A DNA stretch of 64,000 nucleotides from the UHGV virus genome UHGV-1353844; one strand, given 5' to 3'. Under the pieces are notes generated by a model. It saw only the letters and a program-made list of their open reading frames with translations, was not told where the DNA came from and made no database searches. The translations under genes and the position numbers were made by a program. The DNA comes from a virus. Shown here one piece after another: positions 6,575 to 55,444 of the stretch (positions are counted from its first letter, which is position 1; every line of letters starts with the position of its first letter).

Positions 6575-6602
6575 TTTTAATTCTCCTTTAGGTAAAACAG
6601 GT

Positions 6603-6642
6603 CGTAAAAAGGACCCCGGACGAATCGGAACGAACCGGGGTC
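6603..6642 (-). terminator. terminator-like hairpin (minus strand)
   Basis: GACCCCGG…CCGGGGTC stem (15-nt loop) followed by CTTTTTAC. Confidence 0.4.
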
Positions 6643-6653
6643 AAGACTACACA

Positions 6654-9275: not shown

Positions 9276-9305
9276 CGTTAATACTCCTAAAATGGTTTTA
9301 GTTAA

Positions 9306-9347
9306 GTGAGAGCTTTTGTACTCTCACCTAAGTAATATATATCTGAG
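9306..9347. promoter_or_regulatory. conserved AT-rich motif (CTAAGTAATATATATCTGAG) with adjacent 7-bp-stem hairpin; promoter-like
   Basis: One of five copies; sits between a terminator and the SD of the gene starting at 9275. Confidence 0.45.
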
Positions 9348-9365
9348 ATTATTTTTAATGTTAGA

Positions 9366-9397
9366 GAACAAAAAAAAGGTGGGGTTTACACCCCACC
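9366..9397 (-). terminator. rho-independent terminator (minus strand)
   Basis: GGTGGGGT-TTAC-ACCCCACC hairpin followed on minus strand by T8. Confidence 0.65.
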
Positions 9398-9401
9398 GTT
9401 G

Positions 9402-10766: not shown

Positions 10767-10833
10767 TTCTATTTCCTTCTTAACAAAAGCCGCGACTAAA
10801 GCGCGGCAGTTAGAGAAAGTGTATTTTCACTTA

Positions 10834-11985
10834 TTAAAGGTCAGCAACAAACAGCAGCTGACTGCCGTACGGTTCGACAGATTTCCAACCGTAATCTTTA
10901 CCGATCGTCGTTAAATGGCCGGTATTTAACTTTTTGTCAACCATCCGCAGACGCATCATTAGCGTATTGGATTCTGCCGCATCGAGTAACAACGCAGGTT
11001 CTTTTTCAGTGCGGTCATCCGCTTTCGGGAAGAAACTGTAATATTGACTTTTGGGCAGATCGATTGACAACGTATAATTTTTCTTTGTAACGAATAACGC
11101 CATCCCTTCGAAATTGCAATCGAAACGATATTCCCAACCCGCTTCTGCTAAAACGTCTTTTAGCATTTCCATGACTTTAAGCTGGTTAACGCTGGGCAGT
11201 CGGTAGATTGCAAGACCACTTGGGAAAATGCGTATACCGTCGACGACACTATCGGTGGTCTCGTCAATAAGTTCAGGATAGCGTTGTGAGAAAATGTGTT
11301 CGCTCTTGCTTTTCTCTTCGACGTCACGAATGAATTGGGCTAATTCGTCTCTTAAGGCAGACATTTGATTTTCTCCTTTGTCTTCAATAATCAGGTGGGG
11401 TTCGCCGCTAATTAAAATGTGGTAAACGAGATCGTCGGTAGAACGGTAAGTGAGCTTGATAGCTTTATCACTTAACATTTCGTAGCGGAAGAAACTTTCG
11501 TACCAGGTCGAGCCGAAATCGTTTCGTGTGAGTTCCTGCTCAACTTTGATGGTTTTTGCTTCAAAACCAATTAACCCACTTAATAACGCGAGTTCTGGTT
11601 TAGTTAAAATAGCTGCACCGTGAAAGGACACTTGCTCAAGCTGAAAACATAAACTACTGACTTTACCGCTTGGGAAGACCTTAAACATAATCTTCCGGCC
11701 GCTACTCTTTTCTCTAACAACGAGTTTACGGTAATTTAGTCCAGAATTTGTGTAAACCTCGAACTGGTAACCTTCAATTTCTTCATCGTAAGTACAGACA
11801 TCGACAGGCGCGATAATCTCATCGTATTCACTCAGTACACAGCAGCCCAAGTTATAACCAAACAACTCGCGTTGTAATGAAGACTCGATGGTTAAGCTTG
11901 GCAGAGGCCAAGTCTGATTATAGCATCTGTCCATCAGTTCTTTTAGGATCTTGACATGTCCTGGTTTAGAAATAATATTTCGCAT
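10834..11985 (-). CDS. hypothetical protein, paralog family with conserved C-terminal module
   Basis: C-terminus ...GWKSVEPYGSQLLFVADL. Confidence 0.5.
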   Translation of the reverse strand: MRNIISKPGHVKILKELMDRCYNQTWPLPSLTIESSLQRELFGYNLGCCVLSEYDEIIAPVDVCTYDEEIEGYQFEVYTNSGLNYRKLVVREKSSGRKIMFKVFPSGKVSSLCFQLEQVSFHGAAILTKPELALLSGLIGFEAKTIKVEQELTRNDFGSTWYESFFRYEMLSDKAIKLTYRSTDDLVYHILISGEPHLIIEDKGENQMSALRDELAQFIRDVEEKSKSEHIFSQRYPELIDETTDSVVDGIRIFPSGLAIYRLPSVNQLKVMEMLKDVLAEAGWEYRFDCNFEGMALFVTKKNYTLSIDLPKSQYYSFFPKADDRTEKEPALLLDAAESNTLMMRLRMVDKKLNTGHLTTIGKDYGWKSVEPYGSQLLFVADL

Positions 11986-12876: not shown

Positions 12877-12931
12877 ATAGGGGCTGAAGTGCGAGTTCAG
12901 CCCCTATTCACTTAAGTAAAATATATCTGAA
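12877..12931. promoter_or_regulatory. conserved AT-rich motif (CTTAAGTAAAATATATCTGAA) with adjacent 12-bp-stem hairpin; promoter-like
   Basis: Hairpin ATAGGGGCTGAA-GTGCGAG-TTCAGCCCCTAT at 12877..12907; motif at 12911..12931, ~27 nt upstream of ATG at 12959. Confidence 0.4.
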
Positions 12932-14042: not shown

Positions 14043-14080
14043 CTCCTCCCTTCGGGGAGGAGCTATCTTATGCTTTGGTT
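14043..14080 (+). terminator. terminator-like hairpin after 12959..13924
   Basis: CTCCTCCC-TTCG-GGGAGGAG followed by moderately T-rich tail. Confidence 0.4.
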
Positions 14081-24265: not shown

Positions 24266-24300
24266 ACCCCTCCCTGTAATGGGGAGGGGTATCCATTTTA
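24266..24300 (+). terminator. terminator-like hairpin between fibre genes
   Basis: ACCCCTCCC-TGTAAT-GGGGAGGGGT followed by ATCCATTTTATTT. Confidence 0.45.
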
Positions 24301-29549: not shown

Positions 29550-30749
29550 ATGGCCTCCATTGTTTATCAATATCCTTTAGATTTAACGGGCTCGCTAACG
29601 TCTAACGCTGTAGAGCGTCAGATTACGTTAGGTACAGGTAAAGTAAACCGTGCTTTTGCTTTTCCTGACGGCCCGTTCTTTGCGGACACGTTCCGTTTAC
29701 GTGTTGCTAACCGACCGGATGCAACCTACGAACGTGGTACCGATTATGAGTTGATTTTTGCACACCCGACTTATGAAAAGCTGACTAAAAACCGCGAGAT
29801 TGTTATGGCGGTGGTGGTCACTAACACAGCGATTCCAACAGATATTACGGTATCTGCGCAGGTCGTTGGTGGTCCACAGTCTGCGAACATTGTGGCTATC
29901 GAACAGGCGATTGCTGAATTAAACCTCGATAACCGTACGATTGCGTTTAAAGACCTGCGTAACGTACCGGATACATTCCCATCTGCACCGACGTATAAAG
30001 ACGTGGGTGACATCTACGGTTTTGAATATATCATTACCGTATTGGCGGGTATTAAAGATGCGATCAGTTCCGGTGACGCGGTACAGTTAGAGAACATTAA
30101 AGCGATTTTAGAAAGCCTGAAAAATGACTTCTTAGACGCTTTAAATGCACACATCAACGCAACCGGTAACGTTCACCATCTTGATATTCATCAGGTTAAC
30201 GGGTTAACAGAAACTGAAATCCGTGCGCTTATTCGTGACGTCCAGTCTGCCATCGACGCAACGATTACGGAAATCAATGCACTGAAGAAAGCGGACGAAG
30301 CTTTAGGTAAGCGTATTGACGCTGTTGTCAACTCTCTGGAAGCGTGGAACGACCAACTTAACGTGGTTGCTCAAAACTACCAGAAAATGGCCTTAGCGTT
30401 AGCGAACCTGAACTCGTTAGTGTTACAACTGCAAAAGAGCATCAACGATTTAAACACAAAACTGAATCAGGTTATTCAGCGTGTTGCCGCGTTAGAGCAA
30501 CAGGGTCAAGAAACCGATCAGAAAATCGATCAGGTACAACAGAACCTGGATGCGCTTAAACAGCAAGTTAACAATAACACGAACGCAATCAGTCAAGCGA
30601 ACCAGAACCTACAAAACCACATCGCGGCAGATAACCCGCACACCGGTTATCTCCACAAGAGATACGGTGGTGTGGTTCAGGCCCCAGTACACGTTAACGC
30701 TAACCTGACGTCTCGTGATGACGTACAGGCGGAAGCGGGTACGAAATAA
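29550..30749 (+). CDS. fibre-associated protein (399 aa) with shared N-terminal module and C-terminal coiled coil
   Basis: ATG at 29550 with AAAGGAG SD (track starts at GTG 29544); N-terminal DGPFFADTFRL...GTDYEL; C-terminal half Q/N/L-rich heptads. Confidence 0.55.
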   Translation: MASIVYQYPLDLTGSLTSNAVERQITLGTGKVNRAFAFPDGPFFADTFRLRVANRPDATYERGTDYELIFAHPTYEKLTKNREIVMAVVVTNTAIPTDITVSAQVVGGPQSANIVAIEQAIAELNLDNRTIAFKDLRNVPDTFPSAPTYKDVGDIYGFEYIITVLAGIKDAISSGDAVQLENIKAILESLKNDFLDALNAHINATGNVHHLDIHQVNGLTETEIRALIRDVQSAIDATITEINALKKADEALGKRIDAVVNSLEAWNDQLNVVAQNYQKMALALANLNSLVLQLQKSINDLNTKLNQVIQRVAALEQQGQETDQKIDQVQQNLDALKQQVNNNTNAISQANQNLQNHIAADNPHTGYLHKRYGGVVQAPVHVNANLTSRDDVQAEAGTK

Positions 30750-36286: not shown

Positions 36287-36329
36287 TACCTACCTCCGTA
36301 AAGGAGGTAGGTAAACTTATTATTTTTTG
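36287..36329. terminator. bidirectional rho-independent terminator
   Basis: TACCTACCTCC-GTAAA-GGAGGTAGGTA flanked by A-run upstream and T-run downstream; between convergent genes. Confidence 0.65.
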
Positions 36330-36350: not shown

Positions 36351-36881
36351 TTAAGCAGTAAAACCGTCCAATTCACCGTCGGTGGTGGCCAGGTCAATAC
36401 GATTATCGACTACCTTCGGTGTAATTACGAAAGTTGCCATTACACCCGGTTTATAACGGAGGTTCTGTTCAGTAACGGTGCATGTCACGGTACGCAGAGT
36501 GACGTTTTCATGTTCGTCTTTCTGGTCTTCGGTGCTGTACACAACGTCACCTGGCGCGATAGCGTCGTCAGGTTTTACTTTGTTGATGTATAGCTGTAAC
36601 CAAGCGCGGAGTTCATTTTCTTGAACCCAACGAGACAGATCGTCAGTTAGTTCAATCCGTCCTACAACACCCGGCTCCAGACGATCGTAATGCAGTTCGA
36701 TTTCGCCTTTGAAATTCTCAGAACCCGGTAGTGCGGTCATGGTAACTTTGGTATTCTTACTTTCGCCTTCCAGCGCAGTAGGGAGACCAAAGGACACTTC
36801 TTTATCTGTAATCTGATGCGGTAGCTCAGCGTTAGCAGCATTATAAAGCGCGACCAACATCATCTGGTTAGTAGCGGCCAT
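36351..36881 (-). CDS. hypothetical protein, paralog pair (C-terminus ...ELDGFTA)
   Basis: 176 aa; shares N-terminal pattern and C-terminal GELDGFTA with 36951..37487. Confidence 0.5.
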   Translation of the reverse strand: MAATNQMMLVALYNAANAELPHQITDKEVSFGLPTALEGESKNTKVTMTALPGSENFKGEIELHYDRLEPGVVGRIELTDDLSRWVQENELRAWLQLYINKVKPDDAIAPGDVVYSTEDQKDEHENVTLRTVTCTVTEQNLRYKPGVMATFVITPKVVDNRIDLATTDGELDGFTA

Positions 36882-36916
36882 TATCTTAGGTCCTTAATAG
36901 AACAAGTTAGAGAAAT

Positions 36917-36942
36917 ATCGGGGGAGGTCACCCCCCCCGATT
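36917..36942. repeat. homopolymeric C8 tract (G8 on coding strand) within imperfect hairpin; shared flank TCA-Cn-GATT
   Basis: ATCGGGGGAGG-TCA-CCCCCCCCGAT between the two ELDGFTA paralogs. Confidence 0.5.
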
Positions 36943-36950
36943 TAACTTAC

Positions 36951-37487
36951 TTAGCCACCGACACCCGGTGCAGTGAAGCCATCAAGTTCACCTTCCAGAC
37001 CGCTCAGCGCTACCTTCTCAGGAGCTGGGTTGGAATAAGTGAAGGTGGCAATAGTACCAGCCAGGAATTTAATGTGTGCATCGTTTACTTTGACAGTGTA
37101 AACTTTAGCACCACTATCCCCGTCAGTTTTCTCAATGGTCAGTTCGCTTTCAGCGAAATAGTCATCGACATAACCTTTAGTAACCATTTCTTCGTTCAGT
37201 TTGGTTACAATGGCAGAGTTTTCCAGATCGAGGCTACCGGCTTTTTCGTAAGCTTTGGCACCGATCAGGTCTTGAGAAGCCAGACGAATGTAGTGGAATT
37301 CTTTCTCGCCTTTGAAGTTCTGGCTTTCTGCCTTGGCGGTCAGCGTAATTTTGGTGTTACGACCACCGGTACCGCTGTGCGCTTCGACAGCACCAAAATC
37401 GACATCATCAACCGTCAGATTAGAAGCGGTTCCTGGGTTTTTAGCAATTACAGCTTCGACGAACTGCAGTTTGAAGGTTTTAGCCAT
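36951..37487 (-). CDS. hypothetical protein, paralog pair (C-terminus ...ELDGFTAPGVGG)
   Basis: 178 aa paralog. Confidence 0.5.
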   Translation of the reverse strand: MAKTFKLQFVEAVIAKNPGTASNLTVDDVDFGAVEAHSGTGGRNTKITLTAKAESQNFKGEKEFHYIRLASQDLIGAKAYEKAGSLDLENSAIVTKLNEEMVTKGYVDDYFAESELTIEKTDGDSGAKVYTVKVNDAHIKFLAGTIATFTYSNPAPEKVALSGLEGELDGFTAPGVGG

Positions 37488-42094: not shown

Positions 42095-42163
42095 TTTAAT
42101 GCTCCTTTAGGTAAATACAATAATAGAGGGGTGGTTTACCACCCCTTGGACGATTTTAGTTAA

Positions 42164-45066: not shown

Positions 45067-45096
45067 GGTATATGCTCCTAAAATGGTTTTAGTTAA

Positions 45097-45138
45097 GTGA
45101 GAGTAGCTGAACTCTCACCTAGGTAATATATATCTGAA
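45097..45138. promoter_or_regulatory. conserved AT-rich motif (CTAGGTAATATATATCTGAA) with adjacent hairpin; promoter-like
   Basis: ~80 bp here nearly identical to 9276..9347, including hairpin and leader CCATTTTAGGAG. Confidence 0.45.
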
Positions 45139-45148
45139 ATTATTTTTA

Positions 45149-47246: not shown

Positions 47247-47288
47247 TTAATGCTCCTTTAGGTAAATAGTGGGGTAATTAAGCCTTCG

Positions 47289-48711: not shown

Positions 48712-48757
48712 AGAGCGAATGTAAATTTCGCTCTCCCCTAGGTAATATATATCTGAG
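48712..48757. promoter_or_regulatory. conserved AT-rich motif (CTAGGTAATATATATCTGAG) with adjacent hairpin; promoter-like
   Basis: Immediately follows (minus orientation) the terminator at 48758..48801. Confidence 0.45.
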
Positions 48758-48801
48758 AAAAAATAAAAAAGAAAGGTAGTAGGGGCTTAGCCCCTACTAC
48801 C
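48758..48801 (-). terminator. rho-independent terminator (minus strand)
   Basis: GGTAGTAGGGGC-TTA-GCCCCTACTACC followed on minus strand by TTTCTTTTTTATTTTTT. Confidence 0.65.
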
Positions 48802-48960
48802 TAATATTTATTTCATTCCGTTCTGAGAAAGCGTTGTCCCTGTAAGATGCGTAATAACGATCTTAACAGGCAATAGACGCTAACACCACCACACCAGTGA
48901 TGTCTTCTGAAAGTGTCGGTAGCTCGCGAATGCGTACCTTTCCTACCAGTTCAGCCACTA

Positions 48961-49473
48961 TTAACCACCAAAGGTTAAGACGCGATTATCTGCGGTAACG
49001 ATTAAATCGTTGTCTTTTACTACAGCGGCTTCTTCGTCGTTACCGAAAACCAGAACGGAGAATTGGCCTTTATAACCTAACGAGTTGGGTGAAACCTGTA
49101 ACGTTACAGCGTCTTTCCCTACGGTAAATGATTCGTCGGTAAGATCGTCGGGTTGTAAATTACAACCGCAAGCCGCGTTAATTCCGTCGATTAGATCGTG
49201 TGCGGTAAAACCATTACCGGAAACCTTTACCAGAATAGGTTGCTGGTTTAACCACCGCTCTGCGGTTAAACGGTTGTAATAGATTTGTAACGTTCTGTTA
49301 CCAGGACGTTTTATCTTTACAACAGCAGTGGTGTCACGATCCATTTCGTTACTGGTCTTTACGTCGCTGACTTCAACCTCGTTCTCTTGCAGGTCGAGCT
49401 GGAGGTCATGGTTAACCAGTGAAATAACCATGTTAAGTGAAGTTAACGACAAATCAGGCGTGAATTGTTCCAC
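48961..49473 (-). CDS. hypothetical protein, paralog of 58897..59460
   Basis: 170 aa; N-terminus PDLSLTSLNMVISLVNHD… and internal …CG(C/T)NLQP(D/E)DL… shared with the 187-aa protein. Confidence 0.45.
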   Translation of the reverse strand: MEQFTPDLSLTSLNMVISLVNHDLQLDLQENEVEVSDVKTSNEMDRDTTAVVKIKRPGNRTLQIYYNRLTAERWLNQQPILVKVSGNGFTAHDLIDGINAACGCNLQPDDLTDESFTVGKDAVTLQVSPNSLGYKGQFSVLVFGNDEEAAVVKDNDLIVTADNRVLTFGG

Positions 49474-49525
49474 GTATGGTTACCTCCTATGATTGGGGAG
49501 ACATAAAATGTTGGCTAAAAACATT

Positions 49526-49542
49526 TCACCCCCCCCCCGATT
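49526..49542. repeat. homopolymeric C10 tract (G10 on coding strand); shared flank TCA-Cn-GATT
   Basis: TTTCACCCCCCCCCCGATTA in the leader of gene 48961..49473. Confidence 0.5.
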
Positions 49543-49572
49543 ACGTTTTCAAGCACATTCGCTTGAAAATTA

Positions 49573-50076
49573 TTAACTAATCTTCAAATCTCTTAATGTG
49601 CCGGTTGATTTCATCACGTTTTGGAAAGCAGTGCTAATGTTAGAGGTCCAGTAATAATGTTGACCATTAATAACCTGCTGATAGGCTACCGTACAAGTGT
49701 TGCCGCCTAGATTTACGGTGATGTTAGAAGCTCTCCCACCTTGTAAATAGACCGCTAAACTTGGTTTTGCATCAGCAGCCAATGTGATCAATAGTAGTTG
49801 GATACCAATAAGTGTGCCTACGCCGCAGCTACCAGGATTCTGAATAGTCCCTTTATTTTTCTGCGCTAACGGCCAGTTTGGTCCCACCGCACCCCAAAAT
49901 TTAGCCATTGAATCGCTATATGCAGCAGTTGCGATTTTACAGCCAAGAGATCGGCCCACCATTTGACTCATCATAAAAGGTCTACCCAATCCTAATTTAC
50001 TACCAGCAGCACTCATCCATTGTTCGCCCGTTTCGTTCTTGGCCGAAGAACCGACCCATCCAGATGCTACCCCCAT
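49573..50076 (-). CDS. gp38-like adhesin paralog (shared N-terminal fibre-binding module, distinct C-terminus)
   Basis: N-terminus MGVASGWVGSSAKNETGEQWMSAAG… matches N-terminus of adjacent glycine-rich adhesin; no glycine-rich region. Confidence 0.45.
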   Translation of the reverse strand: MGVASGWVGSSAKNETGEQWMSAAGSKLGLGRPFMMSQMVGRSLGCKIATAAYSDSMAKFWGAVGPNWPLAQKNKGTIQNPGSCGVGTLIGIQLLLITLAADAKPSLAVYLQGGRASNITVNLGGNTCTVAYQQVINGQHYYWTSNISTAFQNVMKSTGTLRDLKIS

Positions 50077-50136
50077 TATACCCTATCCTTTTGAAAGGTG
50101 TGAGGAGGGGAGTGAGTATCCCCATACTTTTTCAAA

Positions 50137-55417: not shown

Positions 55418-55444
55418 CTGGGGGAGGTAAAGCACCTCCCCCAA
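55418..55444 (-). terminator. hairpin between 1001-aa gene and long tail fibre gene (possible partial terminator)
   Basis: TGGGGGAGGT-AAAGC-ACCTCCCCCA; weak T-run on minus strand. Confidence 0.35.

Follow-up and report, generated by a model that had tools for sequence, protein, structure and literature searches.

The 64-kb window analysed here, a stretch of the virus genome UHGV-1353844, contains two long runs of cytosine, C8 and C10, located between genes, and the question raised by these tracts is whether they act as switches whose state depends on the number of bases or whether they are present for another reason. An earlier reading made from the letters and open reading frames (the sequence-only reading) considered them as hot spots of polymerase slippage, which could work as length-variable switches or as RNA structural or processing signals. 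The analysis described below leads us to favour, with moderate confidence, the explanation that the runs, which are of guanine in the transcripts, are the 5′ arms of terminator or leader hairpins, and that they would be homopolymers formed as a by-product of these structures, prone to slippage and nearly neutral in their length.

The Phage and Its Virion Module

Judging from its gene content, the window covers the module for virion and tail-fibre proteins in the ~225-kb genome of an uncultured jumbo phage: matches to PHROG and Pfam comprise very large virion proteins, a 1488-aa long tail fibre, two Gp38-type adhesins and an endolysin. The closest cultured phages, at ~38% amino-acid identity, are CR5, the Erwinia Agrican-type phages and the Salmonella Seoulvirus jumbo phages, and the source phage appears to be a distant relative of SPN3US, CR5 and the Erwinia Agrican-type phages; megablast and blastn searches against 50,697 phage records returned no DNA-level relative. 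Close relatives, with 89-99% protein identity, are represented only by metagenomic contigs of ~225 kb, and it is in metagenomic relatives that the tracts were compared.

Position and Rarity of the Two Tracts

Direct inspection of the plus strand gives TCA (36928-36930), C8 (36931-36938) and GATT (36939-36942) at the first tract (site 1), and TCA (49526-49528), C10 (49529-49538) and GATT (49539-49542) at the second one (site 2), exactly in the positions and in the TCA-Cn-GATT form described by the sequence-only reading. The neighbouring genes are all on the minus strand, so that the transcripts carry AAUC-Gn-UGA (AATC-Gn-TGA in the sense DNA). The tracts had been described as rare and as lying upstream of genes for small proteins; indeed, no other G or C run in the 64-kb window reaches six bases, and the genes that start at 36881 and 49473 belong to the DUF7941 family (Table 1).

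A first-order Markov model, used as an analytic estimate for the 64-kb window, predicts 10.2 G/C runs of at least six bases and 0.47 of at least eight, against the two observed in both cases, while the expectation for G10 is 0.02; by count alone, the excess represented by C8 and C10 is modest. The tracts are clearly non-random because both are intergenic, both lie as G-runs on the sense (minus) strand, both have the same 4 + 3-nt flanks and both recur in independent assemblies; the occurrence of the AATC...TGA flanks at two sites has a probability of ~1 in 16,000 by chance. As a separate observation, G/C runs of 6-7 bases are completely missing from the window, where ~10 runs of at least six are expected; this suggests that G/C homopolymers are generally avoided and that selection acts against them in the coding sequence of this phage.

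In a complete 225-kb relative, AATC-G8+-TGA is found at the two sites only, and a genome-wide repeat or mobile element was rejected, since the motif occurs just twice per related 225-kb genome. The 58 other matches in IMG/VR are in unrelated contexts; one look-alike, on an unrelated contig (L015/L053) upstream of a primase-helicase gene, was dismissed as chance. Two other unrelated IMG/VR contigs, L028 and L055, carry AATC-G8-TGACGAAAGTCGCCCCCC-TTTTGC, that is a G-run/C-run hairpin followed by a U tail, indicating that homopolymer-armed terminators are not unique to this lineage.

Table 1. Coordinates of the tracts, hairpins, genes and repeated motifs in the window.
Feature	Position	Strand	Remarks
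G8 tract, 5′ arm of site 1 hairpin	36931-36938	minus	C8 on plus strand
Site 1 hairpin, AUCGGGGGGGG-UGA-CCUCCCCCGAU	36917-36941	minus	11 bp, one G.U, 3-nt loop
U-rich tail of site 1, AUUUCUCUAAC, conserved	36906-36916	minus	5 U in first 8 nt; includes TTCTCTAAC
Upstream DUF7941 virion-protein paralog, 178 aa	36951-37487	minus	First gene of two-gene unit
Downstream DUF7941 paralog, 176 aa	36351-36881	minus	29% identical to gene 36951-37487
G10 tract, 5′ arm of site 2 outer stem	49529-49538	minus	C10 on plus strand
Site 2 composite hairpin	49495-49537	minus	7-bp outer stem around 10-bp A/U-rich inner stem
DUF7941 virion structural gene, 170 aa, GTG start	48961-49473	minus	Last before terminator 48774-48802
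Separate 9-bp hairpin, UUUUCAAGC-GAAUGU-GCUUGAAAA	49546-49569	minus	Just past adhesin stop codon
Gp38_N-type tail-fibre adhesin gene	49573-50076	minus	Upstream of site 2
Third hairpin, UUGGGGGAGGUG-CUU-UACCUCCCCCAG, tail AUCUUUUAGC	55418-55444	minus	Upstream of 1488-aa tail-fibre gene
15-mer TCAGATATATATTAC	9332-9346, 45123-45137, 48742-48756 (exact); 12916-12930 (1 mismatch)	minus	Four intergenic regions
TTCTCTAAC copies	9360-9368, 10809-10817, 36906-36914; 11710-11718; 30086-30094	minus; plus; minus	

Hairpins Formed by the Tracts

Both tracts are arms of strand-specific RNA hairpins, as anticipated by the sequence-only reading, which had proposed an RNA structural signal and, at site 1, a hairpin with a G-U wobble in the minus-strand RNA. 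The latter is found at 36917-36941, with one G.U and eight G-C pairs among its 11 bp, and it folds at -21.1 kcal/mol in the sense RNA (z = -3.1), as compared to -17.3 kcal/mol for the antisense. At site 2, seven of the 10 Gs pair with UCUCCCC, including two G.U pairs, to form the outer stem, and the corresponding values are -23.0 kcal/mol (z = -3.5) and -15.5 kcal/mol. The antisense folds are weaker because the G.U pairs become A.C mismatches; the stability of the sense strand at both sites thus points to a function in the sense RNA rather than in the DNA.

Both sites have, in the sense RNA, a GC-rich stem of ~5-14 bp with a short loop, as required for an intrinsic terminator, and both, like the third hairpin at 55418-55444, follow a stop codon in the direction of transcription: the distance is 9 nt at site 1, where the stop codon is that of gene 36951-37487, while it is 34 nt for site 2 and 19 nt for the hairpin at 55444. 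Directly 3′ of the site 1 stem is AUAUUUCUCU, in which five of the eight bases are U and which is conserved in 12 relatives; this tail is above the threshold of the scan, although weak, and is inferior to those of the best terminators in the window, site 1 having rank 3 among the terminator-like sites in 20 kb. The downstream paralog, gene 36351-36881, has no recognisable promoter of its own, and therefore termination at site 1 must be partial. In CR5, the intergenic region homologous to site 1 contains an ordinary hairpin with a U tail. The nonamer TTCTCTAAC, which is part of the site 1 tail, occurs exactly five times in the window against ~0.5 expected, and three of the five copies are in minus-sense intergenic regions adjoining terminator-like hairpins.

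Site 2 differs, as a U tail was sought 3′ of its stem and is absent, the sequence there being AAUCAUAGGAGG. Eight nucleotides separate the end of the hairpin from GGAGG, the Shine-Dalgarno (SD) sequence of gene 48961-49473, and its G-run has a surplus, with 9-11 G against an opposite arm of 7 nt. The Gp38_N adhesin cassette that precedes it (49540-50136) is replaced by a different one in L008, L010 and L086, and the homology between the window and these three relatives restarts exactly at the AATC-G tract; the separate hairpin at 49546-49569 moves with the adhesin cassette and is missing where the cassette is swapped. Since site 2 stays with the downstream gene when the cassette changes, and lacks a U tail, it fits better with a leader element than with a terminator.

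Two further features were noted in this region. The GTG start of gene 48961-49473 is inside a small predicted hairpin (CGUGGAACAAUUCACG, 49459-49474, minus strand), with an unpaired probability near 0. The adhesin gene starts with ATG-G5-TA (50068-50076), and in L007 (2396-2410) the same start reads ATG-G8-TA, corresponding to one additional glycine in frame; this is a second length-changing G-run, located inside a host-recognition gene.

The third tract-bearing hairpin, at 55418-55444, is homologous to that of site 1, with which it has the arms GGGGGAGGTG and ACCTCCCCC in common. Its 5′ arm is GGGGGAGG in the window and in L062, and an uninterrupted G10 in the relative L089 (about 85-125). 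A search with GGGGRGG-N5-CCYCCCC identified five intergenic loci, site 1 among them, and the 13 matches compare with 1.9 expected, none of 100 shuffles reaching this number. The window thus contains at least five purine-first G/C hairpins, site 1 included, besides many further intergenic hairpins with polypurine and polypyrimidine arms.

Promoters and Transcription Units

The search for promoters considered a sigma-70-like class and a phage promoter-like 15-mer (Table 1). No sigma-70-like promoter extends across either tract, and promoters of this type show no enrichment; the 15-mer is absent from both tract-containing intergenic regions, indicating that both hairpins are internal to transcription units. 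The units that hold sites 1 and 2 end at stronger terminators, at 48774-48802 for site 2 and at 36287-36313 for site 1, the latter being a strong bidirectional terminator-like hairpin that follows gene 36351-36881 and closes the two-gene unit. Neither tract is within an ORF or a recognisable promoter spacer, and a role as promoter spacer was rejected, since no sigma-70-like site lies across the tracts and the 15-mer is found elsewhere. Read-through of the stop codon or frameshifting into the tract was also rejected, as a second in-frame stop follows at both sites, and so was an excisable segment of 12.6 kb flanked by direct repeats, as synteny and spacing between the two sites are conserved in four relatives and the endolysin gene is inside the segment. 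A scan with the covariance models of Rfam 15, at E values up to 1, gave no match at either site.

Concerning the 15-mer itself, two of its copies (in 9276-9401 and 45067-45148) precede a leader of ~55 nt that is nearly identical in the two places, with a hairpin (UUAGGUGAGAG...CUCUCACUUAA) and a ribosome-binding region common to both; from its sequence, the whole looks like a phage-specific promoter plus 5′ leader cassette. An identical leader, UUUACCUAAAGGAG, is also present before three different genes (6575-6653, 42095-42163 and 47247-47288).

Conservation and Length Variation

The site 1 hairpin and its ATATTTCTYTAAC tail are found in 12 of 14 relatives; the other two, L005 and L080, have a different intergenic region devoid of the element. 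In the window and 11 relatives, the tract length is G7 in one case, G8 in two, G9 in two, G10 in five and G11 in two, with the caution that homopolymer lengths from metagenome assemblies may carry errors; in the twelfth relative, L076, an apparent G11 derives from a T-to-G change in the loop. Four intergenic regions with identical flanks have G8, G8, G9 and G10. The C-run of the 3′ arm also differs in length (C4 to C6), the loop reads either TGA or TAA, and AATC is replaced by AACC in one relative; the flanks, which had been proposed as conserved, are therefore identical at the two sites of the window, but are less strictly maintained in the lineage. The gene upstream of site 1 has a 3′ end that is mosaic among relatives.

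Site 2 is present in nine of 10 related loci, L009 lacking the element. The uninterrupted tracts are G9 (one), G10 (four) and G11 (two), and L008 and L086 have an interrupted form, GGAGGGGG. In L008, bases are altered in both stems and the fold is kept, at -24.9 kcal/mol; here the A of GGAGGGGG pairs with the U that in the window forms a G.U pair, resulting in a perfect 9-bp outer stem. L085 and L087, which derive from separate sequencing runs within a single study, match over 2574 bp save for one G in the tract. Covariation lends little support, since almost every pair is an invariant G-C, and MAFFT alignments of such indel-rich tracts are unreliable for counting it.

Thus, the comparison with related phages that the sequence-only reading had recommended indicates that the tracts are conserved and variable in length in metagenomic relatives, and the proposed susceptibility to slippage is borne out by the ranges of G7-G11 at site 1 and G9-G11 at site 2 and by the L085/L087 pair: at both sites, a homopolymer above the slippage threshold differs in length between assemblies of close relatives. 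An origin of the tracts from assembly error, which had been named as a possible refutation, does not agree with their recurrence, at unchanged positions, in over 15 assemblies made independently by several pipelines; together with the pairing of both tracts to complementary arms, this makes chance or an assembly artefact an extremely improbable explanation, despite the error-prone nature of homopolymers and the modest excess, by count alone, of the two runs of at least eight bases over the 0.47 expected.

Predicted Effect of Tract Length

When the site 1 hairpin is folded with tracts of different length, the predicted energy is -18.6 kcal/mol for G7, -21.1 kcal/mol for G8 and ~-23.4 kcal/mol (±0.4) from G9 to G14; as compared to G9 or longer, G8 is 2.3 kcal/mol weaker and G7 4.8 kcal/mol weaker. 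Similarly, site 2 has a plateau at ~-24 kcal/mol from G9. In this series the 3′ arm and its spacing to the tail are not moved by tract length, and the natural variants all fold, at -19 to -23.6 kcal/mol. Since the 3′ arm is fixed and the surplus Gs join the loop, variation above ~8-9 G is expected to be nearly neutral, and the plateau at G9 or more implies that natural lengths never abolish the hairpin. At site 2, the predicted probability that the SD sequence is unpaired is ~0.1 with up to 5-6 G and ~0.5-0.6 with at least 7 G, flat from G7 to G14; none of the relatives has an uninterrupted site 2 tract short enough (below ~7 G) to change SD accessibility. On the basis of these folding predictions, the natural variation in length is probably near-neutral and a binary switch is unlikely, so that the length-variable switch of the sequence-only reading is the part that the analysis does not support.

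Proposed Role and Origin of the Tracts

The only consistent property of the tracts is the pairing with a fixed pyrimidine arm. According to the explanation that we favour, each minus-strand G-run forms the 5′ arm of an RNA hairpin rich in G/C, whose 3′ arm is the fixed (C)CUCCCC(C). Site 1 and the hairpin at 55418-55444 are most likely leaky intrinsic terminators or 3′-stabilising hairpins in late structural operons; site 1 in particular, placed between two paralogous virion-protein genes, may be a leaky factor-independent terminator or a hairpin stabilising the 3′ end, and the extent of its leak could set the expression ratio of the two DUF7941 paralogs. For site 2, which lies in the leader of the gene that closes the tail-fibre operon, the most likely role is that of a non-canonical structure for termination, processing or stability, and its G arm might keep CUCCCC off the nearby SD sequence. 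A generic hairpin role accounts neither for the surplus Gs at site 2 nor for the AATC/TGA flanks that the two sites share.

The coexistence of GGGGGAGG with G10 at the third hairpin, and of GGAGGGGG with G9-11 at site 2, suggests how the homopolymers may have originated. The ancestral state would be an arm of the GGGGGAGG type, in which an interrupting A is opposite to U; a change from A to G would then be tolerated as a wobble, and the resulting uninterrupted run could expand and contract by replication slippage. The interrupting A is dispensable because a G.U pair replaces A-U and the stem remains unbroken.

Alternative Explanations

A role of the hairpins as RNA processing or stability elements, being either substrates of host RNases or barriers to them, like the RNase III sites between T7 genes, is unlikely. 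The hairpins would cut the polycistronic late mRNA and protect its upstream segment. Consistently, site 2 is situated between cistrons of one operon and forms a two-tier helix of ~17 bp, which is interrupted by an internal loop of one nucleotide and lacks a U tail; however, 17 bp is at the lower limit for RNase III. Expression of the gene downstream of site 1 must get past the hairpin, as processing would allow; site 1 and 55418-55444, on the other hand, have the classical form of terminators, with a short stem, a 3-nt loop and a U-rich tail. In phiKZ, many of the mapped 3′ ends are hairpins that are not predicted as intrinsic terminators (PMC10914365), a situation that would be compatible with this possibility.

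Decidedly unlikely, in our opinion, is that the tracts are intergenic contingency loci working as rheostats, in which slippage of the G-run shifts loop size or stem register and thereby tunes read-through or mRNA stability. A phage population would consequently contain variants that differ in the dose of the DUF7941 virion proteins and, in certain relatives, also in that of the tail fibre. Tract length is in fact the fastest-changing character of these regions, as illustrated by the sole difference between L085 and L087 and by the four identically flanked site 1 regions; moreover, all three tract-bearing hairpins are upstream of virion or tail-fibre genes, and the hairpin is predicted to be less stable with G8 and G7 than with longer tracts. 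Phage contingency loci, a few of them intergenic, have recently been shown in T2/T4 (10.1101/2025.10.21.683753). Against such tuning are the flat energies from G9 to G14, the independence of the 3′ arm and of the tail distance from tract length, the flat SD accessibility from G7 to G14, the location of the tracts in neither an ORF nor a recognisable promoter spacer, the absence of the site 1 element from L005 and L080, and the coexistence in the lineage of interrupted, stabilised forms such as GGAGGGGG and GGGGGAGG. That the G-run arms are true contingency loci, with read-through subpopulations providing graded, heritable and reversible variation of virion composition, is very improbable.

Translational control at site 2, which is very unlikely, could take two forms. 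In the first, the G arm is an anti-sequestrator, in the absence of which CUCCCC would mask the GGAGG SD of gene 48961-49473; in the second, the G-run with UGA (GGGGGUGA) is itself the SD of a 14-codon ORF located upstream (49480-49524), the stop codon of this ORF and the SD region of the main gene overlapping. The in silico jump in SD accessibility between ≤5 G and ≥7 G agrees with the former, but all natural lengths are on the plateau. With regard to the latter, GGGGGUGA can pair with the tail of the 16S rRNA when one wobble is admitted, an AUG follows it after 4 nt, and a short ORF is open also in the divergent L008; however, the hairpin buries the AUG together with the SD-like run, the peptide is not conserved (MFLANILCLPNHRR versus MLLETFHPLP), an open frame of 14 codons arises by chance about half the time, and site 1 and 55418-55444 have no such ORF.

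A function at the DNA level, either as recombination hot spots that bound exchangeable modules or as another protein-binding DNA site, is still less credible. It would explain why homology to L008, L010 and L086 restarts precisely at the AATC-G tract, the mosaic 3′ end of the gene upstream of site 1, the three copies with common arms of 9-10 nt and the AATC and TGA flanks shared by both sites. Nevertheless, owing to its G.U pairs the structure is specific to one strand in the RNA, AATC-G8+-TGA occurs just twice per 225-kb genome, synteny and inter-site spacing are conserved in four relatives, and crossovers at any conserved patch would give the same picture.

Significance

If the hairpin explanation is correct, the longest G/C homopolymers of the window are accounted for as arms of ordinary terminator or leader hairpins and not as gene or promoter switches, and hypermutable tracts may arise as a side effect of RNA structure, passing from a GGGGGAGG arm through an A-to-G change to a pure run subject to slippage. 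In practical terms, three positions are flagged at which assemblies of this lineage will disagree, and annotators gain a purine-first variant of the phiKZ-style terminator for the uncultured SPN3US-like clade. To our knowledge, known phage contingency loci act via frameshifts in ORFs; should tract length tune read-through, phage contingency loci would be extended to non-coding RNA structures, and the rheostat, if true, would represent a mode of phage bet-hedging not yet described.

Comparison with Known Systems

With its GC-rich stem of 11 bp, closed by a 3-nt loop and followed by a U-rich tail, site 1 resembles the rho-independent terminators and attenuators of phage late operons, such as T7 T-phi after gene 10; like T-phi, it is placed between the first and the second structural gene, so that termination must be partial. 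As compared to classical rho-independent terminators, its U tract is interrupted (5/8), and the polymerase involved is probably the phage's own multisubunit enzyme, as deduced from the SPN3US-type relationship.

With the contingency loci of Neisseria, Haemophilus and Campylobacter, of Campylobacter phage (polyG) and of T2/T4, the tracts share a G/C homopolymer of 8-11 bases and a length that differs between otherwise identical genomes. Unlike them, they are outside any coding frame or promoter spacer, have no predicted ON/OFF effect, and their length is buffered by the geometry of the hairpin.

In the attenuation of Bacillus subtilis pyrG, a poly-G 5′ extension, whose Gs come from reiterative transcription in response to CTP, pairs with the C/U-rich arm of the terminator. 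There, as in the phage, poly-G pairs with a CU-rich stretch, including G.U wobbles, and decides which structure forms; in the phage, however, the Gs are encoded by the template and form the hairpin itself. PeSL (promoter-early stem-loop) cassettes, in which a repeated intergenic stem-loop edges exchangeable gene cassettes of T4-type phages, are similar for the presence of a repeated intergenic stem-loop at the edge of an exchangeable cassette, and differ in that here no promoter is attached, the copies are three and the arms are of ~10 nt.

The closest parallel concerns phiKZ, where 61 experimentally mapped intrinsic terminators share the motif BCCYCCCC-HWWD-GGGRRGG-BYTTAT (PMC10914365); the main terminator motif of 201phi2-1 (motif A) resembles it (PMC11512511). 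Searching the window for the phiKZ motif with up to three mismatches gave matches at 14043, 24270, 56933 and 57739 and at neither tract site, and the pyrimidine-first copies at 24266-24290 and 14043-14062 fit it loosely. The tract hairpins match instead a mirrored pattern: the purine arm comes first in all three tract-bearing hairpins and is a pure G homopolymer of variable length, ATATTTCT or ATCTTTTA takes the place of YTTAT in the tail, site 2 possesses an additional inner stem while lacking T-rich sequence behind it, and the terminator activity is predicted, whereas that of the phiKZ sites was mapped. In both cases, the hairpins are intergenic and just past stop codons, with a G/C stem made of a polypurine (GGGRRGG) and a polypyrimidine (CCYCCCC) arm, a short loop and, except at site 2, a T-rich sequence after the stem, and they are present in many copies per genome, with read-through that is common in phiKZ and would be so here.
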